DNA of 63,734 bases, filler included, from Reclinomonas americana ATCC 50394 (GCA_048213135.1; 10 parts of 10 records of this genome joined end to end with filler, not necessarily neighbours in it), one strand, 5' to 3'. Shown: positions 3,022-50,800, counted from the first letter of the whole stretch. The notes: generated by a model not told the origin, from the sequence alone. Program-made: numbers and translations.

Positions 3022-5454
3022 TTAAGACGCTGCAGGCTGCAGCTCCATGCCGTGCGGTTCGGTTGACAGGTACGCATCGACCTTTTGCAAAAGCCACCGC
3101 GCATCCTCTGGGGTGATGATTAATGACGAGGTGTCGGTCGCGCGTTCATCAAAGTAGGCAAACGTGCGACATCCCTGCGCACACAACAAAGACGGCAGGT
3201 GTCACAAGCTTTGTCAATTAATTTCTGCTAGACATACAACACGTACCTGGTACGCCGCCATCATTACGTGCGATGGCTTCCAGGACTTGCTTGCTTCGCT
3301 GCCATTGCTGCCGCCGGGCAGAACCTCCACATGCGCACACGGTCGGCGCCGGACGAACGCGCGATGTGCAAAGGCACCTCCGTGCGGCCCAAACACAATG
3401 TCCGCCGTGTAAAAGTCGAGAATCGTCTCCAGCGGCGCCTTGTCCGTCGAAACCGCAAACTCGGTGACGACAAAGTGCGGAAACTCGTCCTTGATCAGTT
3501 GCACAATCTGTGCACGGTTGTCGCGTCACTTCACCACCCAACAACAACAAATAGACCGCCTCCAGTGCGCGCACGCAACAGCAGCGTGTGTGGCCAGCGA
3601 GCGAGCTCCCTTGCGTTGCAGCATGAGAATCCGTCGCCGAGGCTTCCCACTGGCTGGGTCCTTGAGGGGCGGCGCTTTCACTGCCGACGAAAATCAAGAG
3701 GCAGAGTAAGCGTGAAATGCAGCGTGCATCACACACGGAGGACCGCCCGCACCCTCCCAGAATTCACGCAGAGCCGACCGAATCATCTCCTTGTGCAACG
3801 ACTGGAACGCGTCGGCGAGTCCGTGAAGCACAGTCGGGTGTGCCGCACCGCAAAAGACGCCGCTGGTGAAATACGCCTTTTTGGCCAGCACCGGTGGCGG
3901 ATTGATCAGTACCTGTGATCATGGTATGAGCCGCAAGGATGAGGGGGAAATTAGGGGGGAGAGTACACAGCAGCTTGCCACTCACCTGCTCGCGTCGCAC
4001 GCCGAGAGCCTCGAGGAAGCCGAAAGTCGCCTCCTCGCCGTAGACATTCTTCTGCACGAGCACGTAAATGTTGCGGAAGGCGTTCACTTCCTCCCATACC
4101 TGCAACGTAAAAGTGTCAGCACACGCACTCACTGTTGCCATCATGTAGTGTCACAACTGACCAAGAGGAAGCGCGGAAGGACTTCGCCGAGGTAGTGAAA
4201 GAACGAATCGCCCCACGTCTGCTGCAACGGCACCACGGCATCGACGAGCCACACGCGGCCGTCGGCCTTCCACGCAAAGTGCCCGGAACGATCCGCCGGC
4301 GCACACTGACGCGGAATGAACACACGGTCGCGCGAGAAGATCCGCCCGTCCGTAGACACCAACTGCATGCACGAAAAACGAAATTGAGCTGGTGCATCGT
4401 TGGGAGTCACAGAGCCACTCCACGCACAGCATCGTCAATCACAACCGAGTGCGCCTTCAGCGGTGCTGTCTGCGCATGCTGACCACGTCCACCGGGTGCC
4501 ATGAGCACGGGTGCGCCGAGCTCAGTCGGGCGGTTGCCCGGCGGCCGCATCGGCAGATCAAAGTACAATGGATCCGCCTGCTGGCGTGCTCAGTCAGCAT
4601 CGACGGCACCGGCGCGCAGCCAGCGACTCACCTTGTCAAACTGCGGGTGTCTCCTGACCAGGTAGCCGGGCGCGCGAGGCGGCATGGACAGCGCGTCCTC
4701 CTCCATCATCACCTGCGTCGCTCCCGTACGATTCGCCGCCGTCTTCAGCACCGTCTTGTGCGCCGTCAACCACGACGACACCGCACCGACACACTCCGAT
4801 CGCAGCGGGTACGGCGATCGCGCCTCGCCCACCACACCCGCCTCACCATAGCGCGCATGCGCAAACACCATCCCGCGCGGATCAAACAGCGACCACGGGA
4901 ACTGCTCCGCGCATTCTGCACTTGTCAACTGCAACAAGCAGTCAGTCAGTGTGTGCGTGTGGCGCGAAACACGCAACAAAAAACAGTGGAAAGCAAGCTA
5001 TACCTTGGGCAATGGCGGCAAATCACTGCCTGTGCACACATACATCATCACGGTGAGTGTGTGACGCGTACACACGCACATGCAAGTCACTCTCCGCACC
5101 TCCCTGTCCGTTCACAATCTCCACGCTCTCCACACCACCAGCCTCGCCACTCCACGTCGCATCGGTCTCCTTCGCGCGCTGCCCAGAGGCCAGGAACTGC
5201 CACAACCAAACACTCAGATAGAGAAAGAGAGAAGGACGCACGCACACATACTTGTTGCGTACCAGTGTGACGCCAAAGAAGCCCACAATGGCGCCCAACA
5301 AGCCCAGTGCAAGGTAAAAGAGCACTTGCTCGGTCTTTCCCGCGGTTTCTCTTCTTGCCGACGATGTCGCTGCTGCTGGTGATCGACTGTTCTCATTGTC
5401 GCGGTATGGGTTATTGGTGAACACAATGAGAGAGGCGCCCTCGTCGTCGTCCAT
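3022..5454 (-). CDS. Glycosyltransferase family 61 (DUF563)-like type II membrane protein, multi-exon
   Basis: N-terminal TM anchor (VLFYLALGLLGAIVGFFGV), WGDSFFHYLGEVLPRF, ILMLQRKGARSL and ADIVFGPHGGAFAH match GT61 motifs. Stop TAA at 3022-3024. Confidence 0.8.
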
Positions 5455-5525
5455 GTTTAGTTGGTTGCTGACACACAGGACACTCTGACAGCAAATATCG
5501 AACGAACTTGAGAAGAGAAGACAAC

Positions 5526-8500
5526 ATGGAGGAACCAACACTTGTGCAGCCCATTGCGGGCCTGTTCTACCAGGACCCAACAGTACCAGCGGGAAAGAGC
5601 GTGCTGCCTGTGGAAGGTGTGACACGGCTGTCATTTTTCCGCCTTTCACACTCAAAGCACTTGTCTCACTCGTGTGCTTCTTCCTCCGCCTCTCTCTCTC
5701 TCTTTCTCTCTTTCTCTCTTTCTCTATCCTCGCTGTGGCACAGGCGTGCATGTGCAAGCGGAGATTGTGGGCGCGACGGCGCGAGTGACATGCATCCAGG
5801 TGTACGCCAATCGCACTGACACGCCGCTGGAGATCACATATATGTTCCCGTGTGACCGCAAGACTGCCGTGTGTGACTTTGCGGTACAGGTTGATGGGCG
5901 GGTGTTGCGAGTTGAGTGTGCTACGTGTTCGCGTGTTTGTTGTCAGCGATCACACGCGCCTTGATATTTTTAGCTAATCTGTGATTCTGATCGCTGCAGG
6001 GCGCTGTGGAGGCCAAGCAGCGGGCGCAGGAGCGCTACGACGATGCCATTGCGGCCGGACATCGACCATTCATGGTCGAGAAGCGTGACGAGTTCACCTA
6101 CACTGTTGCGTCGCTGCCAGGAGACAGTGTTGTCTGCTGACGATCGCCGACCATCGTGCATTTCGTTCACACACAGGTCAACATCGGTCGGCTGGATCCA
6201 ACACACGAGGCCACCGTGTGCATCACATACGTGACGGAGCTGAAGGCCGACGCGCTGGCCAAGAACCTCGTCTTTGTCGTCTCCAAGTCGCTGCTGCCAC
6301 CGCTGCGTGAGCGCGAGTTGCGTTTCATTCCTCTCCTTCTCTCTCTTTCCTCTGTGAGGCATCCCTCACTCGGTGTCGACAGTGAGGCCGGCTCGTCTGC
6401 ACCTGAGGCAGTGGAGATAGAGACCGCCTTTGGTGTGCTGCGTCGGTTCTGCGCGTCGGTGGATGTGAAGGCCACAATGCCGTCGGTCATCACCAATGTG
6501 ACATCGGAGAATCACGCAATGCACAGCACCGATGTGCGCGACAACGAGGCCACATTGCGTCTGGAGGACGTGCGACAGTCGTTTGCCAGCGACTTGTGTG
6601 TATCATTCACACTGGAGGAGCTGCCAGGTGCGCTGCTGTCTTTCTCTCCTCCCTTGTTGGCCAACATTGAACAATGCAACAGTGCCTGCTGTCTCTGTGG
6701 AGGTGGATCCGGCGTTGGCGGGCACCGACAAGGAACTGGCGGTGTGTGTGACGATTGCCCCGGCGTTGGATGCCAACCTGGATGTGGAGATCAACACGGA
6801 GATTGTGTTCCTGTTGGACTGCAGTTGCGTGGGCATGTTGTTGTGGATGTGCAATCGTCGCTCAGATTGTGACCATGTGTTTGTGATGCAGGTGGGTCAA
6901 TGAGTGGTGGACCAATCCGCGAAGCCAAGCGCGCCATGCAACTGTTCTTGCAGAGCCTCGCACCTGGCGTCATGTTCAACATCTACCGGTCTGCATGTAT
7001 CGGGGGTGACCGTTTTTCTTGTTGTGTGTATCTCACTGCACAGCGTCTGCTCTTCTGCGGTCGCAGATTTGGTGGTGTATTCCACAGCCTGTGGCCGCAG
7101 TCGCGCAAGGTCGACGAGGACACGCTGACCGAGGCGCGTGCGTATGTCGAACGCGCTGACGGTGATCTCGGTGGCACGAATCTGCTGGCACCACTGGGTG
7201 CAATCTTCCGTCAGCCAGTGGTGGCCGGCTACAGCCGCCAGTTGTTTGTGCTGACCGATGGCGAAGTGGAGAATACACAGGCCTGTGTCAGCGAAGGTCG
7301 GTGTGGCAGCAGGTAGTCATCCTCGTCTGTTCGTCGTTGGCTGACATCAATGAGATCCACAGTGGTGCAGCATGCGGGAACGACTCGAGTGTGGTCCATT
7401 GGCATCGGCAACGATGTGAGTCTCCTGGCGGCTGTCTGCGCAGGTGTGGGAAATGCTCACTGTGCATCTTGGCTGTAGGTGGATGCCGAGCTGGTGTTGG
7501 AACTGGCGCGCAAGGGAAACGGCAGTGCTGCATTCAGCAAGATCGGGGAACAGCAGATGGCCTCGCTGGTCATCACCCAACTCACTCGTTGCGTGGCATT
7601 GTGCTTCTCGCACGAAGTGAGTGGAAGCTGACGAGGGTGGAATGCGTCCGTCTGTGTTCGGCGTCCTCACAGGCGCCATGCAACCGGCACTCACCAACTG
7701 CAAGATCACGGTCGACAACCCACGTGTGCATGTGGCCGACGATGTGATTCCGCCAACGTTCCAGGGCGAGTTGCACTGCGTGTATATGTTTGCACCGCGT
7801 GATGTCGGCTCGTTCGAGGTCAAGCTGACGTGGCAGCAGGGTGCCGGTGAGTGCGAAATCTCCTCTGTGTCACAAGTCGACACTCACTGGTTTGTGCATC
7901 TTTGGCAGAGGAAGTGGAGGAGACGGCAACTGTTCGTGCTGGTGCGGCTGTGCGGGGCACGCAAGTGCACACTCTTGCTGGTACTGTGCCGATCATGAAC
8001 TGTGGTGTGTTGAATCAGCAGCGATTTCTGTGCTGACGTGGTGTTGTGTGTGTGCAGCCAAGAGTAAGATCGCGCACTTGGAGACTCACAATGGGTGCGT
8101 ACATGTGAAGAACGGGGGATTGTCTTCGTTGTTGTTGTTCTGAGTGACCCGTGCAGATCGACTGGCGACATTGTGGAGTTGGCAACTCGCTTCAAGCTGG
8201 CGTCGAAGCACACGAATTTCATTGTGGTGGACGACACTCCGTCGGCCGCCAGTGATGGTGGGTGTATGTACATGCACGCACAATCCAAAGTGTTCAGCAA
8301 AGTGTCTGACTGTTGTGATGTTGCGTGTACAGTGGCTCCAGTGTTGCGTGAGATCAACATTGCTCTCGAGAGCGGCTACAAGTCGTTGAGTACTGCTTGT
8401 CAGTTTCCACATTCATTCGTTATATTCTTATTGCTGATGTGCAACAGAGCGGCCACCAGTGGACGACCTGTGATGCGAGGTCTCGGCGCACATGGTTTTG

Positions 8501-10000
8501 CTGCGCCCGCAGCTTTTGCGCCGAACTCCGGTGTCGCATCGTTGGCAGCCTGGTGAGTTTGCTGTACACATTGCTTGCCATTGAATATCCAAGATAGTGG
8601 CTTAGACGATAGCATTGCCGGTCTGCAGTTTAAGAACGCGTCATGCCGTCATGCAAGATGATTCCGATGAATCAGAAGGATCTGACGACGAGGACTGGGA
8701 AAACAGTCCTGCTTCCTCGCCCATGGCATGTGCGTTCTACTGCCGCCATGATTGCATCCTTTTGCACTGCATCTGTCGCCTCACTCTGTTTGTGGACGGT
8801 TTCAGCATTCCACCAAGAGACGCTGTCACGGGCGCGAAAGGCACCATCGCCGCCGAATTTGTTTGGGGCGATGATGTCTTCATCCTCGATGGCATCGCCA
8901 CCTCCACCGCCACCTCCGCCACCGATGTTTGCGTACAGATATGCAGGTGCACCACCGCCACCGCCACCACCACCACCGCCGATGGCCGCACACAGAAGTG
9001 CACCACCCCCACCTCCGCCTCCTGGAGCGTCGCCTCCACCACCCAGAGCAGTGGCGGCCCCCCAACTGCCACCCCCTCCTCCAAGAGCTCCACCTCCATC
9101 TGGAGTAGCACAACGTTCTGTACTTCTCGATGAAATCAGGGACGGTCGCATGCTACGAGCTGCTGAACCTGCTCCAGCGCGAGCCGGGAGAGCAGCAGTG
9201 GGTGGTGGAGACGATGAAGACGACCCGGCACTGTCTGCAGTACTGGCCGCCTCTCTGGCGTCGTACGAGGCAGAGGAAAAGTGTGTCGAACCCTCTAGTC
9301 ATTGATGCGTGTGCGGCAAACTGACTCTGAAGACAACTGTACAGGCAGCAGGAGAAGCCAGTCGGCAAGAGCTCCGTTGTGGCAGCTCCAGTCTTGAACC
9401 TCGTTGCGTCCGCAGCAGGTGCTGTTGTCATCAAACTTTGTTGCTCACTCGATTCCACACAGGACTCACTGATGCTGAAGCAAAACGTTGCGCACCTAAC
9501 ATTCTCTCTCTATCTCCCCACTCACCAGCTGCTGTCGTTGTGTGTGTTCCTGACCTCTGTCTGTGCTCTATGTGTACTGGTTGTGCAGTTTGCTGGGTTC
9601 TGGTCGCCGTCGGAGAGCGGACTGATTGCGGGCTACACGACGAAGACTGTGGAGCAGCTGAATGCACTGCGTCCGGCGTCGGTGGCCGACGACAAGGTGT
9701 GGTGGACTGCTATTGCAATGGCCGTGCTGCAGGTTTGTGCATCAGCGTTGATTGTGTGGAAGGTGCGAGCTTCTTTACTAATTTCATTGATGGCTTGAAG
9801 ACCGTGGGCGCTGCGCGTCGTGGCGAGTGGCAGCTGATGTTCGTCACTCTTGTGCACTTGAGTGTTTCACCACCGCCTGTTGCTGTACATCTCACTGTCT
9901 GGGTTTCGGTTGCAGTTTCAACAAGGGGCAGCGATTCCTGCGTGGCGCCGGTGTCAATGTGGACGAACTGTTGGCGACTGCTGTGCTGGCCATTCAGTGA
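5526..10000 (+). CDS. VIT + VWA domain protein (VWA5A/PARP4-like) with polyproline, WH2-like and UIM-like segments; about 20 introns
   Basis: VIT domain (QVYANRTDTPLEITYMFP...AKQRAQERYDDAIAAG), VWA MIDAS residues (FLLDCSGSM, GGTNLL, FVLTDGEV, WSIGIG) and C-terminal QNFAGFW...WWTAIAMAVL domain. Stop TGA at 9998-10000. Confidence 0.88.
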
Positions 10001-10121: not shown

Positions 10122-11720
10122 CTAGTCGAGGGACTCATCAGCAAAGAGGTCAAAGTTCCAAAAGTCGGCGGGATTGGCGAAGCGGAAGCGGAAGTCAATG
10201 GCAGACAGCTCCTTCATGTCATCCGAGCTCAACTCAAAGGCGAGAGTTCCGCGGAAATTGCTCTCCACTCGTGCAGCGTTGACAGACTTGGGAATCACCG
10301 AGATGCCGCGTTGGAGGAGCCAGCGCAGCGCAATGTTGGCCGGATCCACGCTGTACTTGGTGGCCAAGCGCGTCACCTACGACAGGCATCATGGTCAATC
10401 GTACGAGCGCATAGATGACAAACAAAAAAATCTGCGTGCGAACCACTGGATCTTCGAGCATCACACGCCCACCGGCCTTGTCGCTCTTTTGGGCCAGTGG
10501 TGAGTACGCCGTCATGTGGATGCCGTGGCGAGTCAGTGTCTCGTGAAGTCGATTCTGCGGCAGGTACAGATGGCACTCGACCTGTGTACACGTGTGACTT
10601 GTGAGTGGGTCGGCGAGACGTGCACAGAGGCAAAGCACGCGGCTGACCTGGTTCACAGAAGGACGGATGCGTGCTTCGGCGCACAGTTCCTCGACCTGCG
10701 CCACCGTAAAGTTCGAGATACCGATGGACTTTACCAGACCAGCGTCGACAAGCTCTGCGTGGCGACGCGGAAGTGAGAAGAATCACTTCCCATGTCGGCA
10801 ATTCGACCGCGTGCAACGCAACTCTCCATCTCCCGCCACGTTTCGAGAATAGTGACGCTGTCGTCGATCTGCGAAGAGCCCGACTTGAACTGCGTACGGG
10901 TGAGTGGTGTGCGTCGCGAGAGAAGGGCATCGCAACATGCGACAACACGTACCGCCATTGGCCAGTGGATGAGGTACAGGTCAATGTACGCCAGCTGCAA
11001 AAGAAGTGAGCACTCGTTGATAGGTTCTCTCACGCGGCGGTGCAAACCTTCAGGCGCTGCGACAGACAACAGAGAGAATGCATCATGAGCGACACGAAAC
11101 GCACAAGGCCAATCACAATTGCAACACACCTGCAACGACTGCTCGCAAGCTGCACGCACTCGTGCCGGCGCATGCTCCGTGTTCCACAGCTGCAAGCGAC
11201 ACTGAGCAACAACACGACATTCACATCATCGTCATCTTCATCATCAAACCTTCGTGACAATGAACAAATCCTCGCGCTTGACAACATGCTCGGTGTTGAT
11301 GAGGCGATCCAGCTCATCGCCAATCTCAGCCTCATTGCCATCTGCACACGCATGTGAGAGGAGCAACACCAGTGAAGAAAGCTGCGGCGAATGACGACGC
11401 ACAAATCGCGGCAGTGTCAATGTGACGATCTACATGCATGCATGCACCATGTCAACACCAAGATAAAGGCAAAAGGAACGACAATGATATGCACACACGC
11501 AACATCCTGCAAGAATGGCAGCGCGCACTGCAGCGCCGACTTCACCACGCGACGCCTGCCACGTACCTGTGTTTGTTGTTGCATGTTTTCACTGTGAGCG
11601 TGTGTGCAACAGTCACACGTGTGTGTGTGTGTGTGTGCGCGCACACGCACCAAGACCAATGAGCGGGAAGGGAGCCACACCCGGGGCAATCTCCACAGTG
11701 GGGGCAGACGCGGAACTCAT
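10122..11720 (-). CDS. Aldo-keto reductase, multi-exon
   Basis: FPLIGLGTWQ, GYRHIDTAA, LWNT, YIDLYLIHWP, LVKSIGISNF, NQVECHLY, AYSPLA, VIPKSV. Confidence 0.93.
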
Positions 11721-11989: not shown

Positions 11990-14855
11990 TCAGTTGTGCT
12001 TGATGCTGGCGTAGATGGCTCGCAGGAAGAAGAAGCAGGCCAAGAAGCCAATCGCACCCTGCACACGCGTGTGGAGTACGAGTGAGCTTGCATGGCGCAC
12101 GCGTGGCAATGCGCTTCGCGACACTCACCGTCAGCACGAAGAAGAAGAAGGAGATGAGAAGCATGTAGCCAAAGTATAACAAGCCAGACACGAAGGCGAC
12201 AATGTCGAGGCGCGTGAAGAAATACACAAACGAGTAGAGGAAGAGATAGAGAGCCGACGATCCCGATGTTAGGAACGACCTCCACCACCATTGGTGATCC
12301 TGCGCGCGTGCATGACTGAGTGAGAATAAGCGAAACAAGACACTTCCCCTGGCAGGCACGCAACTCCGCCACACAGTTGGAAGTAGCACAACACAATGGT
12401 GATTTCGCCGCAGGTAATAATGAGGATGAAGAACACGATGAAGAGGAAACCGAAGAGGTAGTAGAACTGTTGTTGCCACAACGACGACATGATGAAGAAG
12501 AGCTCGATGAAGACGGCGAAGAACGGGAACACGCCGCCGACCAAGATGGTGAACATTGGTTGCATGTACCACGGCTGCCACAGCACACCGTCGCACACGT
12601 CAGCATTCGACAACAAGTGACACACAGTTTCCCCACACTCACCTGCGGTGGTACGTGACCCGGGAAGTTGCGCGGTTTTACAGGGTATTGAATAGCCTGT
12701 GCGGAAAAATGTAAGCGGGAGAAGAGAGAGAGAGAGAGAGTACTTTTTTGTTGTTTCTCGCATGACACTTGCCTCTTTCCGGAAGCCAAAGTACGCGCCG
12801 ACAAACACGAGTGGCACAGAGATACCGAACCACATGCCGATGAGGCCCACCATGGCGCCGAATGGTACAGCTCCACTCGAGCCCATCATGAACATGACAA
12901 AGTTGAGGAAGACGAATACACCAAAGCAGGCGCCAGGGAACGCCAACGCGGTCTGCAGTACGCACAAGTGAGCGGGCAGACCAGAGGGAGAGAGCAGGGG
13001 AGAAAAAGGTGCCACGGAACGGCAAGGCAGTTGCGCTTCCAGTTCTCGCCACCAAACGTCTTGTAGAACCGCGCAGAGAAATAGCCAGCCACCGCTCTGC
13101 GAGGACGGTGTGAGACATACGAGGATTCGCAGAAAGGTACAGATATACCAACGACGCACCCCATGAGCACATACAGCACGACCATGGCGGTCATCAAGGC
13201 TCCGCGGAACTGTGGTCGCAGGAAGCCGAGCGACGCAAACACTGCGGCGGGGTCGACACGAGGTGAATACTCTGGAATACAAAACAGAGGGAAGGAAAGC
13301 GCGCACACGCACCCATGGTGATCATGGCCATGGACAGCACCTGCACACCGGATCCCACCGCCACCGCAAAGAGATTCNNNNNNNNNNNNNNNNNNNNNNN
13401 NNNNNNNNNNNNNNNNNNNNNTTAATTAATTAANNNNNNNNNNNNNNNNNNNNNNNNNNNNNNNNNNNNNNNNNNNNCCGGGCTTTTCTGGATCAGGCTC
13501 GTGCTTGACACTGGCGACACAATGGTCGGTGAGTGCGCCGTGATCGGATGATAAGAGAAAAAACCGAGCACATACCTAACGGGCTTGATCTCGAAGCCCA
13601 CCACACGCTTGCCCGTGAACGACGGTTCAGTGTGGTACTTGACGGTGAAATCGAGGTGGTTATAAATGTATGGCACATTGGCTTTTGTGTTGGGATACAG
13701 CTGCGGTGCCACGGGCGTGAGGATGATGGAACATACACACACACACACACACACACACGCGCGTGGCAAGCGAGTCACCTCTGGATCGCCGAGGAATCCC
13801 AGCTCAAAGCCGATCTCGTAAGTGCCGCTGCCCTTGAGTACCGACGCCGGCAACCCGTCCAACAACCTGCGCCAGTGAAAGTGAGTCGCCAGCCAGCCAG
13901 TCACCGAATCGAACCGAGGCCGCAACGCAACATGTTCACACGATACTCCTCCTGAATGCGCTGTGCAAAGGCCGCCATCTGCGTGGCATCGTATGTCGGA
14001 TCGCACAGGATGCTGCACGTCTTCTTTTGCATCATCTTGAGCTGTGTGCAGACGATTTAGAAGATCGCCTGCGATTCACACACCCAGAACGCACTCCACA
14101 ACGCAACCGTGTACGCCGAACTCTCGATGCGATCGCCAAAGAGCAACTCGCCCAAGTTCTCTGCGAGTATCGCCAGCAACAGTCAGCCACAGCACATGCA
14201 GGAGCGATTCCCCCCACTGCACGCTGTCCGCACCCGACGCCTGACGAATGCCATCCTTCGGTCTGCGAATGTGCAAGTCAGCAGCGTTGATTGAGAATGA
14301 CAAGCGCCACAGCATCGACGCAACTGGCAGAACGGCAGTGTGTAGTACTCGTACGGCAATTGTGTCTGTGCAGTGAGAGAGTGTGTGTGTGAGGACAACT
14401 CGATCGCCTCCACTGTGAGAGAGAGAGACACGCACCTTGGACGATGTCAACGCGTTGACTTTCAAGTCGAGCTCCTCATCGTCTGCGACCACGAACACTC
14501 AAAGTGTGAATGATCACACTCGCACACGCACAAGCGCACACAGCGCGCGCCAAGACACGTGTGACACACACGCAGGGACTGTTGCCATGGCCATCGCTCT
14601 CTCACACACACACTCTCTCACAAAACACACATGCAATCATCTCTCGCTCTCTCGCAATGTGTGCGCATGTGCAAGTGAGAGTGCACTCGTGTGTGTGTGT
14701 GCATGACGACAGTGGCGAAAAACGAAAGTGAACTTGCCTGCATATGAGCGCGCAGACATGCCCGGCAACTGCGCAGCTGCTGGCACCACCAGCATGCTCA
14801 CTATGGCGAGCACTGCCACCAGCAGAAGCAGCAGCAGCAATGGCGGTCTCACCAT
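11990..14855 (-). CDS. Transmembrane 9 superfamily (EMP70/TM9SF2/4-like) protein, split across the first assembly spacer
   Basis: Contig 2 holds the signal peptide, LPYEYYTLPFC, ENLGELLFGDRIE and IYNHLDFTVKYH. Contig 1 holds GFLRPQFRGAL, WFGISVPLVFVG, WWWRSFLTSG and the end AIYASIKHN*. The middle is lost in gap 13378-13477. Confidence 0.93.
13378..13477. other. Artificial contig spacer (44 N + TTAATTAATTAA + 44 N); also at 15541-15640, 20104-20203, 23504-23603, 30014-30113, 33484-33583, 38871-38970, 58454-58553 and 62567-62666
   Basis: Identical 100-bp blocks containing the six-frame stop linker. Confidence 0.99.
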
Positions 14856-15540: not shown

Positions 15541-15683
15541 NNNNNNNNNNNNNNNNNNNNNNNNNNNNNNNNNNNNNNNNNNNNTTAATTAATTAANNNN
15601 NNNNNNNNNNNNNNNNNNNNNNNNNNNNNNNNNNNNNNNNAGCTCAACTCTCTTGCCGATTGCCGCTGACGTGACCGCCGCAG

Positions 15684-19582: not shown

Positions 19583-19626
<44 letters not shown>

Positions 19627-20251: not shown

Positions 20252-23200
20252 ACTCATCCAGGCATTTCCTGTCTCTCTCTCTCTCTCATCCAGACATTTC
20301 CTCTCTCTCTCTCATCCAGACATTCCTGTCTCTCTCATCCAGACATTCCTGTCTCTCTCATCCAGACATTCCTCTCTCTCTCTCTCATCCAGACATTTCC
20401 TGTCTCTCTCATCCAGACATTTCCTCTCTCTCTCTCATACATTTCTTCTCACATCCAGACATTCCTGACTCTCTCAAGATTTTCCTCTCTCTCTGTCTCA
20501 TCAAGACATTTCCTCTCTCACACACATTGATATTTCGTTCTCCTTCCCTCTCTTCTTCGTTCCCCCATTCGCCCTCTCACTCTGTTCCGTCTTCCTCCTG
20601 ACAATTTTCCTGATCACCGTCTCACCTCGATGTCGTCAGTGGCGCTCTATCCATTCTCCCACTTGCTTTCCCCCTTCCCTTATTCGCCTTCTCACCCTGA
20701 TTTCGTTCCATTATTTCCTATTCCTGTCCCTCTCTCTCGTCCCCCTTTCCCTTTCCACTCACATTCAGACATTTCCTTTACTCTTCCCCTCTTCACTGCC
20801 CTCATTCTCGTTCTTGTCCAGTTCTCTCTGTTCCTCATGTAGACATTCCTTCGCTAGACTCTTTTCATCCTTCCCCCATTCACCCTCTCACTTCGATCTC
20901 TTCCCTGATATGCTGTTCATGCCCATTCTCCCCTCTCTTCCCCTTCCTTCCTCGCCCTCTCCCCTCCGCCCTTTTCCCCCCTTGCGTTTCTTTTCTTGCC
21001 CGCCCACTTTGTTCTCATTATCCTGACCATTTCTGTTCTCCCCTCCCCCACTCACTCTATGCCCCTCCTCCCGTTCATCCTCTCACCCTTGCCCTTCCGC
21101 CCTTTTCCTCATCATCTCCCCTCATCTCTCCTTCCCCCCGTTTGCTCAGCTGGACTTTGAGCGACTGCGGGCGTTGGTCGGCTCCATCCAGAACTGCTCC
21201 ATGAACCTCCGCGTGGTCGTGATTTCGTTTGATGCGACGGGCGGTGAGTGCACGCCTCCCCGATTGTGAGTTTGTCAGTTTGCCGACATTTTTTCCCCCT
21301 CTGTTTGTTTCGCGCCAGGTGCGATACAGGAGAACAAGGCCAGCGAGATGCGCGTGTGGGTCAACACAGATCTCGTGCACATGACCGGCTCCATCAACAA
21401 CGACGACGAAGCACTGGCGCTGATCGAAAAGGCCGTCACCAGTGTGGCTGGCGCCTCCATGGACATCATGTTTATCCAGCCCAGCGTCGTCTTCGGCAAC
21501 TGCCCGAAGCGGCCGTCCACGTCGCTGCGCACGGTCACCATCAATGCGGCGAGCGAGCGCACCGTGCCCAAGTTGCCGCCTGGTCACTGGTACGTCGATA
21601 TCTCTGCATCGTTTTGCGCCGCTTGTGAGTACTGAGTGAAGGGGGGGCGGCGTCGCAGGTTCGAGCGCTCGGGCAAGAGCATTCTTCCGTGTCCGAGTCC
21701 GTGCCCGGGTGGCGCCAATTTGCTGCTGCCCATCCAGTGGCCGGCGCGTTGTCACCTGATGCTGCGCGACAAGGATCCTGAGCTGGAGATGGCGTACCAG
21801 TTGATCAAGGGCGCTGACGGCGTGGTGAGCGAGTCGCCGCTGAATGTGGCCACGCTGACTCCCGAGCGAGTCGCACAAGATAAGCCGGAGATGTGTGTCG
21901 TGATGCCGCTGTATCACCGCGGTCGCGACCCGCTGGAGCAGAGCCATCTGTTCAGCATCTTCATGTGGCAGGTGTGTGTGTGTGTGTGAGAGAGAGAGAG
22001 GAAGAGGAAGTGAGTGAGAGAGTGAGGGAGAGAGAGAAGGAGAGGGGAAGAGAATGAGTGAGGGAGGGAGAGAAGGAGAGGGGATGAGAGTGTGAAAAGG
22101 ATGGAAGGTGAGTGGAAGAGAGTAAGTAAGAGAGGGGAGTGAGTGGGTGTGTGAGTGAAAGTGTGCGAGACAATCACTGACTGAATGAGTAAGTGAGTGG
22201 GTTAGTGTGTGTGTGTGCATGTGTGTGCGATGGATTACACATTCGTGTTATTTGCTCATTTTTCTTTGCAGACCGTGAATCAGCTGTTTGCGAATCTGGA
22301 CGGCACCTATCGGCTGGCGTTCTACTGTTGCGTGGTTCCTGTTGCTGTTAGCTTCGCCGTGCTGCATCTACTCACATTCTGCATCTGTGCAGGGGCCATG
22401 CAGCACGACAAGATTAACACAGACACACCGGGCGAGTTGTCCAAGATTGGCTATCGCGAAGTACGTCTTTTATTATCACCGATGCACGTGACATGCAGTT
22501 GCTGACTGTGGCGCGCGTGCAGTTTAAGAGAATTTTCACCGCCGCTGCCAAACCCGGCGAGATCACGCGCTACCAGACGTACATGACGGGACTGGGGGTG
22601 TGTGCTATGTGCGCTCTTGCTCTCCTTTTTTTTTTCTTTTTGACACCCGTCGCTCTCGACACACAGCCACCCAGTGACAATGTGTATTACCCGCGAAACC
22701 AGCTGGCCTCAGTTTCGTTGACTCTTCCGTCGTTTAGTCGTCGTTGGCTCTGACCCCAAAACCCCCACTTTGTGCAGTTGACATACAACCAAGGATGCAC
22801 GTACTTCTTTTTGACCGACAACGACGCCATCTTCATCGACACCAATTTCATGAATCGGTGCGTGTGCGATGCTGTTCGCTCCTCGTCACCAAGGTTGTCT
22901 CATACTTTCAGCAGCTGGGTCAATGAGCTGCGCTTGATGGGCGACTTTGGGTGCGTTGTGTCGCGCAGTCGTCGAGGAGTGCATCGTCTCACCTGCGGTC
23001 ATTTTGATTGGCAGAGCTGTCGGGAGCGGATGGCGTGACACTCTCTTCAATGCGTTCATTGTTGGGCGCCCGCACTTGGAGATTTTTGGCTCAGTTGCGT
23101 GATCCCTTTCTTCTCTCTTCTCCACTTCTGCCACTAGTGCTCATCTGTTTCACTCCGCAGTACTGGCCTCCGTATTTCCACAACTGGTGAGTGGTTCCAC

Positions 23201-30113: not shown

Positions 30114-31303
30114 AAAACACGCACACATACATATACACACAAGCGCCGCACCAGTGATAGTAATGGTGGCCACGGATGCACCCGAAGCCGATGTGCGGCT
30201 GTAGGTGGTGGTGGAGAGCGTGATCGCCGAGGGTGGATTATTCAGCAATATCGTTGTCGTGAGAGTAGAGCTCGTCAGCGCCGGCGTGCTGCGGAAGTGT
30301 GAGAGGTAAGCCGAGCAATATGCACACGTGCCGGCAACACTCGACGAGAGACGCAACCCGCTGTCTTGCGCGTAGGTCTTGACAACGAGGCTGCCCACGA
30401 CAGGCCCCAGCAGCGTGTCGGAGGGGTACAGTCCGGTGCCGCTGATGGCAAAGAGGAAATTGTTGCCTTGCCCATCGGCCAGCACGTACGTAATCGTCTG
30501 CGTCGTATTCGCGTCGGTGGCCGAGTAGGTGCCGAGGAGAGTCGAGCTGGGGATGCCGCCGGTCACCAACGGCAGGAACCCGCTGTCCTTCAGTGGTTGG
30601 AACACGGCCGTGAATGTCAGGCCAGTGGGCGCAACATTGGCTGGGGAGCATGAGCACAACAGAGTGAGAAAAAGCAAGTGGTGATGACATGCATTTCTCC
30701 ATCTCATACATCTCTCTCTCTCTCTCACACACACATATCTCTCTCTCTCTCCTCTTTCCTCTCTCCTCTGTCTCTCTCTCTCTCTCTCCTCTCTCTCCCT
30801 CCTTCCCGCCACTCGCACGCAACTATCAGTCACCGTGATTGACACATCTTGCTGCCCGCTCCCGCCTGCATAGATCGCTCGCACCGTGCACGTCAGAGTC
30901 CCAGAGGCCGCCGACGTGTTATCAATGAGCACTTGCGCGGTGCCGTCTCCATTGTCGGTCAACGTCAGAGAGTTGGTCGGGGACACGTTCCTGATGGTGA
31001 TGCTGTTGGGAAGCGGGTTGTCGGTGTCGCTGTTGGTGAAGGTCACCGTGCACATCAGGTCGCCCGAGGTCAACGAGCTCGCTGTATTTCGTTCATCATC
31101 ATGCAGAGTTGGCGAATGTGTGTTCGAATTGGTTCTTTTGCGGTAACGTGGAGCGTGCGCAGGCGAGGTGGGCGATACAGAGACGGAGATGGTGGCCTCG
31201 GCCGCGTGCAGGGTGCTGGTCCACGCCACCACCGCTGCCATGACAACAATCAGGGTCGCCAACTGCTGTTGTCGCCCATGTCTCTTCCGAGGCCAAGTGC
31301 ACT
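30114..31303 (-). CDS. Secreted or surface protein with cadherin-like/Ig-like repeats, 3' end in gap
   Basis: Hydrophobic leader (LATLIVVMAAVVAW...AAEA). Repeats such as VSITVTD-TNVAPTGL, LLGTYSATDANTTQTITYVL, FAISGTGL, VKTYAQDSG and LLNNPPSAITLS resemble cadherin-like linkers and strands. Confidence 0.65.
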
Positions 31304-32277: not shown

Positions 32278-33483
32278 ATGCGCTCGTTCATTGTCCTCGC
32301 TGCCCTCTTCTTCCTCGGCCTCGTTGCCGTGTGCGCTGCTTCCTCAGCTGAGGAGTCAGGTGAGCAGTGTGACGTGCACGCGCGCGCCAGACACACACGC
32401 ACACCCCACCCCACCCCTCCCCACTCGCTGACCCCACTCGTGTGTGTCTTAATTTCCTTGCCGTTGATGCCTGCAGAGTATGAACTCACCGATGAAGGTG
32501 CGTGCTCCCGACCGTTACTTTGCCTCCTGCATTCAACAAGGCACTCACCTGTGTGTCTCTCACCCACAGAGTTCGCCAACTTGATGCGATGTTGCGACGC
32601 GCTGCATGAACACACACACGCCACATGAAATCACCTCGTCGTCTCACCTCGTCGTCGTTTGCGTACATACAGTTGCCCAGTTCGACTCCTTTGCGGAGGA
32701 CTGTTGCGTCTTTCCCACTTTTCCCGCCACACACAAACCCGCTATGCATCCATGCATCCAACCCCACTCACATTACGTTGTGTGCCGCGCAGCATACGAT
32801 GACACCGAGTCTCAGCTGCAAGCACAGGAGGCCGCCAACAAGCAAAGCGCTGCCCTGCTGCTGTCCTTCAACCTGTCGACTGAGAAGTGCTGCGGTGCTC
32901 GTGGCTCTGTCGGCTACTGGTTCCAGAAGCTGTTGGACGCCCGCGCGTTGCGTCTCCATTTGCCGACCGTGCTCGTCGGAAGTTTGTGTCCTCACTCTCT
33001 GTGCTCTCCATGCAGTGCTCTGATCGCCGCCACCCGCAACCTGGTGGCCGACAACAAGGCCATTGATGCCCTGAACGCTGCCGTGGCCTCGCAGACCGCC
33101 CAGTGCCAGCAGTACCCGTACGACACTGTTTCGTTCGACTTGCTCCATTTTTTCCATTTATGCGCATCCAGTTTGCTCGCCTACCGATGACTTACGATTA
33201 TTCCCCACCTTCTCGTGTCGTGCAGACCTGCGCTGCTAAGCTGGCCGCCATCAAGAACGACCTGGCTGCCGCCACCGCCAAGCGCGATGCCGACCAGAAG
33301 TCGATCAACGAGTTGCGTCATGGAAATGAGATGATATCGCCCCATCTCTGTCTCTGCCTTGCTGACTTTGGTGGTGTGAACGCGCGCACACAGCATCAAC
33401 GGCCAGATTGGCTCCATCACTGGCGACCTGAACTACTGGACAGGCCTGGTGCAGACGCAATGCATCAGCAAGTAACTCTGCGC
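32278..33483 (+). CDS. Secreted coiled-coil protein with microexons, 3' end in gap
   Basis: Signal peptide MRSFIVLAALFFLGLVAVCAA, eight introns that restore one frame, heptad-like Ala/Gln/Lys-rich segments with spaced Cys, and strong codon bias. Confidence 0.8.
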
Positions 33484-36460: not shown

Positions 36461-38797
36461 ATGTCGGGCGGTGAGTTGGCCCACTCGCATGCACACTGTG
36501 TTGCCTACACACGCACGCACGCACAGACACGCGCGCGAATGTCTGCACTTTGTGTTGTTTTGCTGTGCGTGACATTTCCCCCTCTTGCTGCTCACACCAA
36601 ACTTGCACGCAGAGTCGACGACACTGCGCATTGTGCACGTGAACGATGTGTACGAGCTGCATCAGTTCCCGCGACTGCGCACACTGGTGCAGCAGCAGCA
36701 GCAGCGATCGACTGATGCACGTGTAAAGACTGTGACAACCATGGCCGGAGACTTCCTCGCGCCCTCACTGCTCTCGGGCATTGATCGCGGTCGTGGCATG
36801 GTCGACTGTCTCAATCGCGTGCCTGTTGATATTGTCTCGTTTGGAAATCACGAGACCGATGTGCCGTATGAGTCGCTGGAGAGACGCATTGAGGAGTACT
36901 CGGGAGTGTGGCTCAACAGCAACATGCCGGCGTTTGGAGTGCCGTTGCCGGCGTCGCATGTGGTGCAAGTGGGCAAGCGCAAGGTCGCCTTTGTGGGACT
37001 CATGTCTGCGGATCCAACGTTGTACCGCCCGAATTCGTTTGGAGGTGCATTCACGTCGTTGACGCCGGTGAACAGCACGTTGCGTTGCTGCGCACAGTAG
37101 AGGGAGAGTGAGAGCTGTGCAGCGGCCAACGAATGTGCATGCTTGTAGATGTGCCGATTTGTGCCATCAGCTGCGTGGCAGTGTCGACTGTGTTATTCCG
37201 TTGACGCACCAGGATCAGCCGGATGACGATGCTCTCGGCCACATGGGTCTCTCGCTCGGTGTGCCGGTGGTTCTTGGCGGGCACGATCACAATGAGGTGA
37301 GGAGACGCAGGCGGGGGTGCGCACGCGTGTGTGCGTCGCTTATGCCTCCGATGCAGTGCGTCAAGTTTGTCAATGGCTGTCTCGTGGCCAAGAGCGGCAT
37401 GGATGCCAAGCGCGCCACCATTATTGAGTTGACGTGGAGCAGCGATGAGGATGTGCTGCCGACAGTGACGTTCCACATGGAGACGGTGACCGCGTACGAC
37501 CCCGACCCGGCGCTGGCCGAGATTGTGGGGTCGCACATGGTTTGTTGGAGTAGTCACCATCTCCCCTCTCTGTCTTCCCCTCTACTCTGTCTTCTCCCCC
37601 ACTCTGTCTTCTCCCCCACTCTGTCTCCCCACCTTTCCGTCTCTCTCCCCCACCCCTTTGTAATTGCAGTACGGTTCTCACCTTTCGTTGGGCAGGTGAA
37701 ACTTGCGGCCCTCGACTGCATGGTGTTGTTTTTGATTCGCGACAAGGAAGCGCCGGCACGCAGCCCCACCTCCACCGAGATGGCGGAAAAGTATTCGGGG
37801 TTGACGGCCCGGCAGCGCTTCCTCGCGCTCACGTTGCACTCGTTGCCGGCGATCTCGTCGGTGAATTCGCGCTGCCAGGGCACCACACTCGGCACGCTGC
37901 TGTGCTCCATTCTCCGCGGCATCCTCAACGTGGATGTAAGTTGGGGAGCGGGTTGCCCATGCGTGCGCATTTGCTGACTTTTTTTCCCATGCGCAGGCCT
38001 GCGTATTGGAGAGCGGCGGCGCTCTGCGTGTCCGCAAGGATTACCCCGAGCGCTTCACGTACGGCGATTTGCAGGCCGAGATGGTGCGTCGCATGTATCA
38101 GACACACGCACACCCCTTTTGTTTGCTAACTTTTAACTGTGGGGCGAAACAGCCGTTCGAGAACAATCTCGGCGTCATTGCGATGCCGGGAGCTGTGCTG
38201 GCCGAGGCCATTCGCGTCTCGCGCGACGTGCAACCCGGTGAGGAGAACTCGAGCTTGCTGCAAAACGACGACGGCATCACGATCGAGCCGGCGCCGTCAC
38301 ACCGCGTGACCCGCGTCGGCGGGCGGCCACTGGAACCGGAGCGCCTGTATCGTGTGGCATTCAACTTGGATCTCGGACTCGGGCACAGCAATCCCGTGCT
38401 GCGCGCATTCGCAGAGCGCAATCCAACCATTGTGCCACACGCCGACTCCTGTCTGCCGGCCAAGATCGTGCTGATGGAGTTCTTCAGTCGCCTCTTCTGG
38501 GAGCGCCTGCCCTCGTTCGACACGGTCGACGTGAACGGCGACGGCTTCCTGTCGGTGGACGAGGTGCGCGATCAGTACGTGAAGCTGTTTGCCGACGTGA
38601 ACGGCGACGGTGTCGTGGACGCCAGCGAACTGGCGGCCGCCAACTGCATGGCCGAGTTGCTGATCAAGGCCGTCGATCGCAACCGCGACTTCAAGGTCTC
38701 TCGCGAGGAGTACGAGACCATGTTTTGCGATTCCAGCCCGGCCGCACCAGCGCCCGTGTCGGTGCATGATCCGGACTATGTGCCGGCGTGGGAGTGA
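36461..38797 (+). CDS. 5'-nucleotidase/apyrase-family metallophosphoesterase with C-terminal EF-hands
   Basis: IVHVNDVYE, AGDFLAPS, FGNHE, PLTHQ and LGGHDH motifs; 5'-nucleotidase C domain (SGGALRVRKDY...TYGDL...PFEN); EF loops DVNGDGFLSVDE, DVNGDGVVDASE and DRNRDFKVSREE. Confidence 0.9.
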
Positions 38798-45967: not shown

Positions 45968-46003
<36 letters not shown>

Positions 46004-46087
46004 GAAGGGGAGTGAGTGTGTGAGAGCGAGAGGGGGAGAGGAAGGGGGAGTAAGTGTGAGTGAGACAATGAGTGACACATAAACACA

Positions 46088-46119
<32 letters not shown>

Positions 46120-46184
46120 TGTGTGTGTGTGTGTGTGTGTGTGCGACACTCTTTCACACAAACACTCTCAATCACGCTCACTCA

Positions 46185-46219
<35 letters not shown>

Positions 46220-46619
46220 TCACTCACTCTCGCTCTCTCTCTCTCACACACACACACTCTCTCTCACTCACACACTCATTCACACACTCACACACTAACT
46301 CACTCTCTCTCTCTCACTCACTCACACACTAACTCACTCTCTCTCTCTCACTCACTCACTCCCTCCCTCCCTTCCCTCCCTTCTTTCCACCATTCACTCA
46401 TGCTCATCTCCGCTTTCTGTACAGCCCGTCGCTCTCGACGTGGAAACGTACGCGTCGCCCGTGGACAGCTTATTCAAGTGAGGTGGGAAGGGTGGCTTTG
46501 TTTTTTGTGTCGCGCCGACTGCAACCTCCCCTCTGTCAAACGCGGATGATGATACGTGTGTGAAGTAAATCTTTGACACGCTCGAGACCTTTGGCGGTCG
46601 GTGCAAGGATCCACGGGCA

Positions 46620-46860
46620 ATCGCCATGATCGCACTGTGCGGTCATTGCCTCAACTCACCACCCACTGCCCGTCGCCAGAGACCGCCACTGTTCTCACAA
46701 TGGCCGCATGACCGTGCATGCACGACACCTCTTGTCCACTGCTCACCTCCCACATGCGCACAGTGCAGTCCTTGCCGCCAGTGACCACGTGAAGTCCGTA
46801 GGGTGTCACTGCCAGTGCATGTACGCAGCTGGTGATGCTCTTCCTGTGAGTAGAGACCAC
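46620..46860 (-). pseudogene. Degenerate WD40-repeat fragment
   Basis: VHALAVTPYGLHVVTGGKDCTVRMWEV...GHAAIVRTVAVSGDGQWVVS*GNDRTVRSW; an in-frame TGA at 46651-46653 replaces the conserved Gly, and the flanks lose frame. Confidence 0.75.
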
Positions 46861-47185
46861 ATGCGCAGACTCATGTCGCCGTCGCAGTCGACGTTGAAGA
46901 GGTGCTGTGTTTGTCGGGGGAGAAGAGAACGTGGCTGATGACGCTGTGGTGGTGGTTCCAGTGGAGGAGCGGGTGGAGGAGGGAGGTGGTCATGGGAAAG
47001 GAGGAGAGGAGAAAGGATTTGTCACGCACAAGTCCTACTTGTCAGATCGCCAGCTGCTGTTGAGCAGAAGTGAGCTTGCCTGTTCTCTTTCTGCTGTCAG
47101 TGTCAGTCCTCGCTGTGTGCGTTTGTGCAAGAGAGAAGGAGAAAAGGAGAGCGAGTTGTTGCATTTCTCCGCTTCTTATTGTGCC

Positions 47186-47230
<45 letters not shown>

Positions 47231-47855
47231 TTCCCCGTGCATCTTGTCTGTGTGCTGCTTGTTCTTCTTGTTGTTGTGACGCATCATCATGGCAAGTGGG
47301 AGTGGAGTGCCGCGTGAGTTGCGTGTCTCTCTCATTGTGTTATTGTCAGATGCATCATCATCATCATGTCTCACACCGTGTGTGATTCGTTCCCTGTCAC
47401 TCTCTTCGCCTCTCCTCTCCTCTCCCGTGCAGTCATTCTCACGATGCTGGTGATGAAGAATGCATGATTCGCCTTGCCAAAGCCCTGTCTCGTCCATGCA
47501 CCCGCGCTCTGCAATCCAAACTCGAGCAAGTGCTGCCGGCGTTTCTCGATTCGTATCCCGGTGTGAATCACGTTGCCGAGTGGTGCAAGGCGCCGAGTGA
47601 GCGTGATGTGCGGTGAGTGTGTGGGGAGAGATGTGGAAGCCCACGAAGTCAAGATGCAGATGGGAGAAGAGAAGAGATTGCCACAAGCAAGTGGCAGATG
47701 GTGACGCACTTGTCATCCCTTTCTCCCCATTCTCACGCTCTTCATTGTCTCACACACACGACTACACATTCTATCCCTGATGAATGCCCCCACTTTCTTG
47801 TCACACACGTCCCTCGACTCACCTGCATCCTTGTGACTTCCCCACATGCAGCACC

Positions 47856-50800
47856 ATGCCCGACGTAGTGGACATGTGCGTCCAGTTGAACGAGAAGGAG
47901 CGGCAGACGGTGCGCGAGTGGCATCAGCGAGGCCAGGTGCACGACTGCAGTTCATTTGATGCGATGCTGTGCTGCTCCATCTTGCTGCTGGCTGGTCATC
48001 GAGAGCACCCGAGAGACGAGCCGGATCGTCTGATTCCAGCTGGCGATGTGGTGAGTGCGTGAGAATGAGAAAAAGGAGGAGGAGTGTGATCTCCCTCTCT
48101 GTGTGATTGTGTCTCTCAATCTCTCATTGTTACACAGCGCGATGCGATTGCGCGAATGAGGGAGGTGTTTGAGCAGACGAGTCCCGCACGAGCTCGTGCA
48201 CTCTTTGTGTCTCTGCTCGGAAGAGGAGGAGGAGAGGGCGAGTTGCACCAGCTTGTGCGGCGGCTGCAGATTGGCAGGGATGTGGAGGAGGAATTGGTGG
48301 TACAGCTGAACGAGTCTCGTGATGGTGGGTGGGAGGAGAGATGGCTGATGCTTGCGCGTGCATGATTTGATTGAATGTGGAAGCTGATGCTGTCTTGGTT
48401 GTGTGTGAATGCAGGCGCATTGAGTCTGACAGACCAGGCATCAATAGCAGCCAATGTGGAGCAAGTTGAGTGGATTTGCATGAGGGAGGCGGTTGCCTGC
48501 ACAGTATTCATGGATTCTCACTTGCTTGTGATTGATCAGATGCGCGTCGAGATGGAGCTCATGCGGAAACAGCTAAGCACAATGTGCATCTCGCCCTCTT
48601 CTCCTTCTGTTGCAGGTTCGTTCTAAGATGGACCTGCATCGGAATGCATTACTGTGCTCACCCTCACTCTCTGTGGCACACAGCACCAGACAGCAGTCAC
48701 CCACCCAAGACACCACTCATGGCCCGCACCATCAATCCAGTGACCACATTCCGCTTCCCAAGTCGGCGTGCGCTGGCAGGTTCACTCGCCACACGCATTG
48801 TGGATGCTGTGGAAGGTTGGGTGTCCATTCTCCTTCTCCCTTCCTTGTATCTCTACATTCATGTGTCTCATCGTGTTGTCTGTGGTGGATGATTCTGTGC
48901 AGCACATCAGCCAATCATGATGGTGCTGACGGGCGATGGTGGCACTGGCAAGTCGTTCCTGGCCGAGCTGCTGGTGACCGAGCTGCTGGCGACTCGTCGA
49001 TGGAAGGGATCGGCCGTGTCGGTAGAGATGCGTGGTCATGTGAGCGATGTGAGGGAGCATGTGAAGGTGTGCTGAGGAGCATGCATGTTGTCTTTCATGT
49101 TGCACCATCTCCTTCCCTGTCATTCTCACTCTGCCTCTCTTTCTCCATGCCACTTGCCGCAGGCGCAAAGTGCTCTCGGCGAGTGTCTGCGTGCCTTTGT
49201 GACGGCGCAGATGCGAGTGGATGAAGTGGAGGGACGAAGACTGGCCGGTCAGGTGGATGCACTGCTCGCGAGTGGCGAGGTGGAGCCAGCACGTCGTCTG
49301 CTGCGACAGCTGATGCACGCCTCGAGTGGAGCGACGATGCTGGACAATGTGGGATCGGCTGAGCAAGTGAGGAGTGTTGTTCAGTGTGCTGATGAGGGTG
49401 CGTGTAATCATGAGAGGGAATTCTCTTTCCTGGTTGGGTGTTGGATTCTGACTTGATGTGCATCATGTGTGTCTGTGTGCAGATGGACTGGTGGCACCGA
49501 TAGTGGTGGTGACGAGTCGGTATGGACAAGTGGCGGATGAGATTCGTGACTCGATGATGCACGAGGCGGAGGTAGAATGTGTGCGAGTGGCGAGTGTGGA
49601 GAGCGAGGATATTGTGCAGCTGGTGGAAGAGCGACTGCTCCACAAGGTGTCGGTGGATGTGCGACGACGGATCGTGGAGGCGCTGGAGAGTGGACAGCAG
49701 GAGAAGAGTGCACTGCGAGTGAGTGCTTGTGTTGGGTGAGTGCTGAGTGAGTGAGTGGCTCGTGGATGAGAAGACTCACTCTTCTCTCCTTTTCTTCTCC
49801 TGCATGCAGCTGGTTGCTGTCACAATCACCAGCGCAGCTGGTAGGAGTGCGACTGGAGGAGGTGCTGAGTGGCATTGGTGGCGATGCGCTGTCGAAGCTA
49901 CTGGAACGCAATGTGATGTCGCAGACAGCAGCCGCGCGTCGTCTGTTGGTGCTGATCACGGCGTGCAAGGAGCTCGGCTTGCCAGTGACAGTTGCACTCG
50001 CACGAGTGGCTCTCGGTGTGCTGCGAGTGATTCCCGATATGACGGTGGTTGTGGGTGGTGGCGATGAAGATGAGGAGGCGGCAAGTCGACTGGTGGAGTT
50101 CGGTCAATGTGTGCGTCGACTGCGACTGCATGAGCTTGCACAGGATAGGCGACGGCGTGCACCCGAGGTGGTGAGTGAGCGACTGCAGTTTGACGAGATA
50201 AGTGTGGAGGAGGAACAGCGAGTGCGTGCACGGCGTGATGTGTTGGTGGGAGGTGGTGGTGGCGGTGACTATGGAGTGGAGGATGTGCTGGAAGGTCTGT
50301 GCTTGTCGAATCTGGTGACGGTGGGTGTCAGTGGCAGCATGGACAGCGTCGCTCGTGTGCTATGTGGTGAGCAAGTGAGAGGGAGTGGCAGTGTGGTGGT
50401 TGAGTATCGGGTACACGACGAGATTGCTGGGTGGATTGTGGGACGGTGTGGGGATACCGTGTCACGGGCGCAGCGACTGATTGTGCGACTGGTGTGCTGT
50501 GTGCTGAATGGCATCGATTCACAGCTGGACAGTGACGGTGTGTTGTTGGTGTCTCGTGACTTGCTCGGTGTGCTTCACACGGTGTGGCGCCTGTTGGGTG
50601 AGGATGATGGCATGTGGGCGAGGGATGCTGTGGGTGTGAATGGGCTGCTGGTGCAGTGTGGGGCGGTGGAGTGGATAGCTGAGCAGTGTGGCAGCGATAA
50701 GCTGGCGTCGGTTGGATTTGATAGAGCTGTGGCGTCGTCACTTCTGCGACGAGTGACAGAGTGTGGAGTGTGTAGCGATGGTGATGTTGTGATGAGTCCT

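Follow-up and report, generated by a model that had tools for sequence, protein, structure and literature searches.

Does a eukaryote make routine use of 5' splice sites that look like its ordinary donors with one extra T, and if so, what reads them? The question is raised by a 63,734-base stretch of DNA from Reclinomonas americana ATCC 50394 (GCA_048213135.1), referred to here at its full length as the window. An earlier note, made from the sequence alone, listed 27 heptamers there, such as GTTGCGT and GTTGAGT, as donors of a major class in which the G at intron position +1 stands in for a missing G at the last exon position (-1). All 27 heptamers are present at the positions and on the strands listed, and an exon G precedes only two of them (14107 and 28990), as the note had said. 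Judged from the sequence, this organism has a real and frequently used class of GT-AG spliceosomal donors that read GTTG[CA]GT or, in a wider form, GTTNNGT; we call its members shifted donors. The window (56% G+C) consists of ten contigs joined by linkers of the form N44-TTAATTAATTAA-N44, and the census of donors covers approximately 58 kb and four conserved genes in this one window.

A frequent donor class and its exon side

Cut sites were located with our own spliced aligner, which compares a protein profile with DNA, requires only a GT or GC donor and an AG acceptor at an equal penalty for every such pair, and scores no donor motif. The profiles held 40 homologues for the TM9SF gene and 34 for the VIT-VWA gene; the aldo-keto reductase (AKR) gene was aligned singly to four homologues, taken from the 10 fused or tandem proteins that were all a search for "longer" homologues returned. 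Fifteen introns were placed in TM9SF, four of them beginning with GTTGCGT (14324, 14107, 13931, and 12364) and one with GTTCCGT (13020). Nine were placed in VIT-VWA, including those with donors at 5911, 6105, 6824, and 7588, and two in the EF-1 gamma gene, both with normal donors; the AKR donors at 11503 and 10822 were each recovered with all four homologues. Five doubtful calls were removed before counting, leaving 32 introns: 14737, a GC donor within the weakly aligned N-terminus of TM9SF; 11129 and 11047, where the AKR homologues disagree on a 9-nucleotide (nt) micro-exon between them; 6311, ambiguous with 6317; and 2243, where the call reflects a gap in a linker of low complexity within one open frame. 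Eleven of these 32 homology-fixed introns begin with GTTNNGT (nine GTTGCGT, one GTTGAGT, and one GTTCCGT), as listed here with a slash marking the cut:

14318..14324, minus strand: TM9SF donor a/GTTGCGT, intron 14324-14263 (62 nt), phase 2
14101..14107, minus strand: TM9SF donor g/GTTGCGT, intron 14107-14042 (66 nt), at a position common to 11/11 control loci
13925..13931, minus strand: TM9SF donor t/GTTGCGT, intron 13931-13867 (65 nt), cutting the conserved Met codon of RVNM/LLD
13014..13020, minus strand: TM9SF donor of shifted type, c/GTTCCGT, intron 13020-12953 (68 nt), outside the earlier list
12358..12364, minus strand: TM9SF donor a/GTTGCGT, intron 12364-12300 (65 nt)
11497..11503, minus strand: AKR donor t/GTTGCGT, intron 11503-11430 (74 nt), within AGY/RHID
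10816..10822, minus strand: AKR donor a/GTTGCGT, intron 10822-10755 (68 nt)
5911..5917, plus strand: VIT-VWA donor a/GTTGAGT, intron 5911-5999 (89 nt)
6105..6111, plus strand: VIT-VWA donor t/GTTGCGT, intron 6105-6176 (72 nt)
6824..6830, plus strand: VIT-VWA donor a/GTTGCGT, intron 6824-6891 (68 nt), within the metal-site motif LLDCS/GSMSG
7588..7594, plus strand: VIT-VWA donor c/GTTGCGT, intron 7588-7672 (85 nt)

The predicted cut positions of ten donors on the earlier list are hence fixed at the protein level as GT-AG junctions. The junctions fall in well-aligned stretches (LLDCS/GSMSG, AGY/RHIDTA, EYRVNM/LLD, QLCGG/DHQWWWRS, and QLTR/AMQPALTN), and the three conserved motifs that had been claimed to contain such junctions (LLDCS/GSMSG, AGY/RHID, and RVNM/LLD) do so. 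With no dinucleotide constraint at all, in a run that excluded the AKR gene, the introns at 13931 and 6824 were recovered exactly.

In agreement with the claim of a major class, GTTGCGT is the commonest single donor heptamer among the 32 introns, followed by GTGCGT with five; with the five dropped calls included as non-members, the share of GTTNNGT becomes 11/37. The class can also be read, as proposed, as a normal donor of the organism with a T added. As a foreign control, the same aligner and profile were applied to 24 TM9SF loci of other eukaryotes from metagenomes (several of them near-duplicates), where none of 148 introns began with GTTG[CA]GT and one began with GTTNNGT (ag/GTTGTGT). A scan for relatives gave a best identity of 78% among metagenome loci, on one highly conserved exon, so no close relatives are found there; the TM9SF loci served as controls only. 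A gene finder begun with uniform donor weights and then self-trained ranked GTTGCG as the top donor hexamer (14/80), followed by GTGTGC (5); this donor-neutral run strayed onto the wrong strand and into over-long introns, many of its other introns were wrong, and only its ranking of donor hexamers was kept.

Across the five gene spans defined by homology, GTTG[CA]GT occurs 11 times in sense and never in antisense orientation; ten of these are the fixed donors, and the eleventh is 6317. On both strands of the window, GTTGMGT occurs 38 times versus 21.2 ± 4.6 in 100 dinucleotide-preserving shuffles, none of which reached 38, an enrichment that the earlier note had proposed to look for. Coding potential was compared across candidate sites in an annotation-free test whose coding model was derived from long open frames alone. 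It falls across GTTG[CA]GT (median difference 3.74, n = 37, P = 5e-4 versus all GT sites, for which the value is -0.87) much as it does across G/GTG[CA]GT (3.41, n = 54), and the 140 GTG[CA]GT sites without a preceding G show almost no fall (0.29). Most of the latter are probably not donors, and a G at exon -1 seems nearly obligatory for the normal donor class.

The two classes differ on the exon side. A G at -1 precedes one of 11 shifted donors versus 19 of 21 others (Fisher P = 1.0e-5 for the homology-fixed introns), which is the avoidance of -1 G that was to be expected on the earlier proposal. Exon -1 is A in 5/11 shifted donors, and exon -2 is A in 12/21 normal donors versus 2/11 shifted ones. 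Annotation-free counts in the window gave 14 occurrences of AGTTGMGT versus 5.2 ± 2.3 expected, with 0 of 100 shuffles reaching 14, and four of GGTTGMGT versus 5.05 expected. An exon-side preference that is displaced along with the class, with A at -1 as at -2 of normal AG/GT donors, is supported. Both classes are forms of a single signal whose third base is G or T, the normal one reading AG/GTGCGT and the second A/GTTGCGT, and the position of the cut goes with that of the GT.

The shifted TM9SF introns at 14107 and 13931 lie at positions, and in phases, common to 11 of 11 control loci, and therefore old introns can bear the shifted signal. At the phase-2 intron in the conserved Met codon, where the exon must end in AT, the controls mostly have donors of the at/GTGAGT, GTAAGT, or GTATG- type, with GTAGG- and one GTGCGG also present; at this same position, R. 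americana has at/GTTGCGT (13931). Insertion of one T after the GT within the intron would turn a normal donor into a shifted one and leave the exon untouched.

Regarding gene architecture, the TM9SF gene (11999-14825, minus strand) holds at least 14 introns in approximately 500 aligned codons, a very high density, and the introns are of uniform small size. Introns have a median length of 68 nt, the acceptor is CAG in 30 of 32, and branch motifs resemble CTCAC or CTGAC. One homology-fixed TM9SF intron is of the GC-AG type (g/GCAAGTG, 12766-12772, minus strand). The possible AKR micro-exon (RLK), on which the four homologues disagree, would lie at 11048-11056 (minus strand), between introns 11129-11057 and 11047-10995. 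In the VWA region, the intron position at 7297 (plus strand) may be shared with other organisms, in which the predicted short proteins P0251, P0256, and P0265 end by reading into an apparent intron at this position (for example, at CVME/VSG in GTGAGTGG).

Recognition of the displaced signal

With the U1 5' end taken as AUACUUACCUG, as printed in the excerpt of PMC4856993 consulted, shifted donors form a mean of 6.0 pairs one base out of register versus 3.5 in the canonical register, and 10 of the 11 pair better when shifted; other donors form 7.1 pairs canonically versus 3.3 shifted. We favor a mechanism in which the ordinary 5' end of U1 binds the signal one base out of register. The intron +1 G would pair in place of the exon -1 G, the +2 U would be mismatched, and later components (U6, U5, and Prp8) would place the cut at the GU. 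Viewed as an eight-base signal, A-G-N-T-G-C-G-T, a T instead of a G at the third place would leave the sole GT one base further upstream. Such recognition would go with a single U1 type bearing ACUUACCU and a standard ACAGAGA box. We put its probability at roughly 55%. The idea that the +1 G stands in for the -1 G fits the dependence on -1, the displaced exon preference, and the pairing of 10 of 11 donors, whereas we infer the register itself, together with U1 as the reader, its standard 5' end, and the placement of the cut.

The same donors could be read through a bulge, with U1 pairing normally to the +1 G and +2 U, one U bulging out, and pairing resuming at GCGU. The class does equal a normal donor with one extra T, the intron-side pairs would be identical to those of the shifted register, and bulge registers at +2/+3 are documented for human sites in the part of PMC4856993 consulted. 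A bulge predicts, however, that -1 G and -2 A are still favored, and these were seen in 1/11 and 2/11 shifted donors, with -1 A enriched. Because this predicted preference is not seen, the shifted register is preferred; a one-base bulge would usually also be costlier than one internal mismatch, and we regard it as quite unlikely here. Alternatively, as the earlier note had allowed, a variant small nuclear RNA (snRNA), either a U1 paralogue or a U6 with an altered ACAGA region, might match GUUGCGU directly and act beside the normal U1. This would suit a class that is very uniform (9/11 GTTGCGT) and no rarer than any normal donor type, and it would suit the choice of GCGT at positions where AAGT is what a standard U1 would favor. 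Nevertheless, no second snRNA is needed to explain the common A-G-N-T-G-C-G-T frame and the displaced exon preference, and this alternative, although the foremost of the rivals, is unlikely in our view.

Ordinary see-saw compensation between AG//GUNNN and NN//GURAG classes, in the normal register and with no shift, would explain the loss of -1 G in the shifted class, and -1 G is anticorrelated with intron-side strength generally in intron-rich eukaryotes according to an excerpt of PMC11732430. It fails to explain the extra T, because +5 in the normal register is C in 10/11 shifted donors and A in 1/11, with G at +6, so that the +5 G that defines GURAG is missing; a match to the organism's own GUGCGU appears only after a one-base shift. 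We consider such compensation very unlikely to be the explanation. Even less probable is an artefact, in which the heptamers would be chance occurrences or mis-modelled and the true cuts would lie at other GTs. Such a view can point to noisy ab initio models outside the conserved genes, to cut sites known at the protein level only, and to four claimed sites (8385, 9487, 22712, and 24469) that the trained ab initio models do not support, but it is opposed by the homology-fixed junctions, the comparison with the foreign control, the fall in coding potential, and the excess over shuffles. Copies of a mobile intron (an introner-like element) that carry their own GTTGCGT end would account for many introns with an identical 7-mer in very intron-dense genes. 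Yet intron interiors give the same median local score, 8, in shifted-shifted, other-other, and mixed comparisons, lengths and composition match, and two shifted introns occupy the positions common to all 11 control loci; this is the least probable of the explanations.

Several results weigh against the class as described or against its shifted recognition. The homology-fixed introns are few (32 in 4 genes, with five calls dropped beforehand). In the unconstrained alignment, five more shifted introns kept the same length and were displaced by 1 to 10 nt, and two of nine failed to reappear (14324 was fused to the adjacent intron and 7588 was displaced). An acceptor-matrix test downstream of the motif failed to discriminate, with 0.21 for both donor classes, a background of 0.10, and one control at 0.29. 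The pairing counts assume that AUACUUACCUG, the standard U1 5' end, holds in this organism; the donor at 13931 pairs slightly better canonically (5.5 versus 4.5 shifted); and GCGT is preferred over AAGT at the paired positions, contrary to the prediction for a standard U1.

More broadly, we see about an even chance that R. americana uses a two-register 5' splice-site code, in which approximately one-third of introns, ancient ones included, would be read one nucleotide out, with the first G of the intron serving as the last G of the exon where the coding sequence supplies none. A U1 or U6 variant specific to such introns may have arisen together with this code. No spliceosomal snRNA was found in the window, where Rfam gave 0 matches at gathering thresholds and none of this kind among 23 matches at E up to 1; these were mostly microRNA-like matches on microsatellite palindromes, with one weak C/D-box small nucleolar RNA and a few bacterial small RNAs. 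U12-type introns were considered and rejected, with 0 occurrences of RTATCCTT in the window and donors that read GTTGCGT.

Further candidate donors and gene content of the window

Apart from the ten donors fixed by homology, the other sites on the earlier list fared unequally. Gene models predicted ab initio, after training on the 32 homology-fixed introns, used 13 more of the listed sites as donors, plus 29234 and 47318; since the donor model already contained the shifted class, the 13 provide no independent support. The four named above as lacking support went unused in these models. The candidates are as follows:

3573..3579, minus strand: donor t/GTTGCGT in the GT61-like gene, intron 3579-3508; ab initio only
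6317..6323, plus strand: probable VIT-VWA donor a/GTTGCGT, in frame with the GC alternative at 6311; ambiguous, uncounted, and outside the earlier list
8385..8391, plus strand: claimed donor c/GTTGAGT; donor-neutral run only
9403..9409, plus strand: donor c/GTTGCGT in the unconserved C-terminal part of VIT-VWA, acceptor uncertain; ab initio only
9487..9493, plus strand: claimed donor c/GTTGCGC after a putative 24-nt exon; donor-neutral run only
22327..22333, plus strand: donor t/GTTGCGT, intron 22327-22392; ab initio
22712..22718, plus strand: claimed donor a/GTTTCGT; motif present, in no model
23094..23100, plus strand: donor a/GTTGCGT, intron 23094-23160; ab initio
24463..24469, minus strand: claimed donor a/GTTGCGA; donor-neutral run only
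28984..28990, minus strand: donor g/GTTGCGT, acceptor uncertain, with a 316-nt intron in the model; ab initio, weak
29228..29234, minus strand: donor a/GTTGCGT, intron 29234-29130; ab initio, outside the earlier list
30817..30823, minus strand: donor a/GTTGCGT, acceptor uncertain; ab initio
32591..33318, plus strand: five GTT-type donors in a small secreted-protein gene, namely GTTGCGA at 32591, GTTGCGT at 32703, 32947, and 33312, and GTTTCGT at 33128; ab initio
37079..37085, plus strand: donor c/GTTGCGT in the metallophosphatase/5'-nucleotidase-like gene, intron 37079-37181; ab initio
47318..47324, plus strand: donor a/GTTGCGT, intron 47318-47432; ab initio, outside the earlier list
48465..48471, plus strand: donor a/GTTGAGT, acceptor uncertain; ab initio

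The best ab initio case is the small secreted-protein gene (32278-33475), where five of seven introns begin with GTT- and removal of all seven leaves one frame from ATG to stop. For the junction at 37079, comparison with PDB did not extend to the cut: the upstream exon resembled a nucleotidase only at a distance from it, and no match was obtained for the downstream exon of 38 residues.

Pfam searches on open frames placed the EF-1 gamma gene at 1090-2926 (plus strand), with its closest homologues 56 to 59% identical in protein comparison; the AKR gene at approximately 10180-11700 (minus strand); and the TM9SF/EMP70 gene in two pieces at 11999-13376 and 13498-14825 (minus strand), on either side of the first linker and with approximately 130 residues missing. 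Because the TM9SF gene spans two contigs, adjacent contigs are ordered pieces of one scaffold. Also found were a metallophosphatase/5'-nucleotidase gene with EF-hands (36461-38797, plus strand), an NTPase-TPR gene (up to 51655, plus strand), and a weak GT61-like match (3217-3525, minus strand). Blocks of N occur at 13378-13477 and at 15541, 20104, 23504, 30014, 33484, 38871, 58454, and 62567.

The contig at 58554-62566 contains long unbroken frames, with an AcrB-type RND transporter (60784-62559, minus strand) and a MarR-like regulator (60338-61621, minus strand); it looks like bacterial DNA, either a contaminant contig or a transfer. Palindromic microsatellites of the form (TG)n(AG)n ... (CT)n(CA)n at 46086-46246 give rise to spurious sub-threshold microRNA matches, and several contigs carry CT/GA repeats at their ends.

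Comparison with known 5' splice-site registers

Flexibility of the U1 register has been described at a small minority of human sites and in disease mutations, and shifted sites are a small part of the human sites with noncanonical registers. The original paper on shifted-register 5' splice sites in mammals is reportedly that of Roca and Krainer in 2009, and sites in the bulge +2/+3 register are said to have been described by Roca and coworkers in 2012. The donors in R. americana are like the mammalian shifted sites in that they begin with GU, match U1 one position late, offer the +1 G for the -1 G, and would be cleaved at the GU. Unlike the human shifted sites, they make up 11/32 homology-fixed introns, ancient positions included, and their core is GCGU rather than AAGU. 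Human noncanonical registers together account for 1.5 to 5.1% of sites, according to an excerpt of Tan et al. 2016 (PMC4856993).

In the literature searched, which left subscription journals mostly outside its coverage, we found neither a GTTGCGT/GUUGCGU donor class nor an organism with such sites as a major class, and the genome paper may describe the class. If the two-register reading is true, R. americana would offer a natural system for the uncoupling of the cut site from U1 binding and for the handling of a displaced signal by U6 and U5, and it would also show how donor signals evolve where the exon cannot carry a -1 G. In practice, a gene finder that relies on one donor matrix will annotate a genome of this kind wrongly.

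In form, the class resembles the bulge +2/+3 sites as given in a figure legend of PMC4856993, being a normal donor with one extra U after the GU, but its exon-side preference is displaced or lost, contrary to the bulge model. It also resembles the two-class donor scheme in the excerpt of PMC11732430 consulted, with separable classes that do and do not have exon -1 G; in contrast to that scheme, the class without the G is moved by one base in R. americana and is not merely stronger on the intron side. Shifted and bulged U1 registers are already established for human sites, and the use of the shifted register for a major donor class would be the new part.

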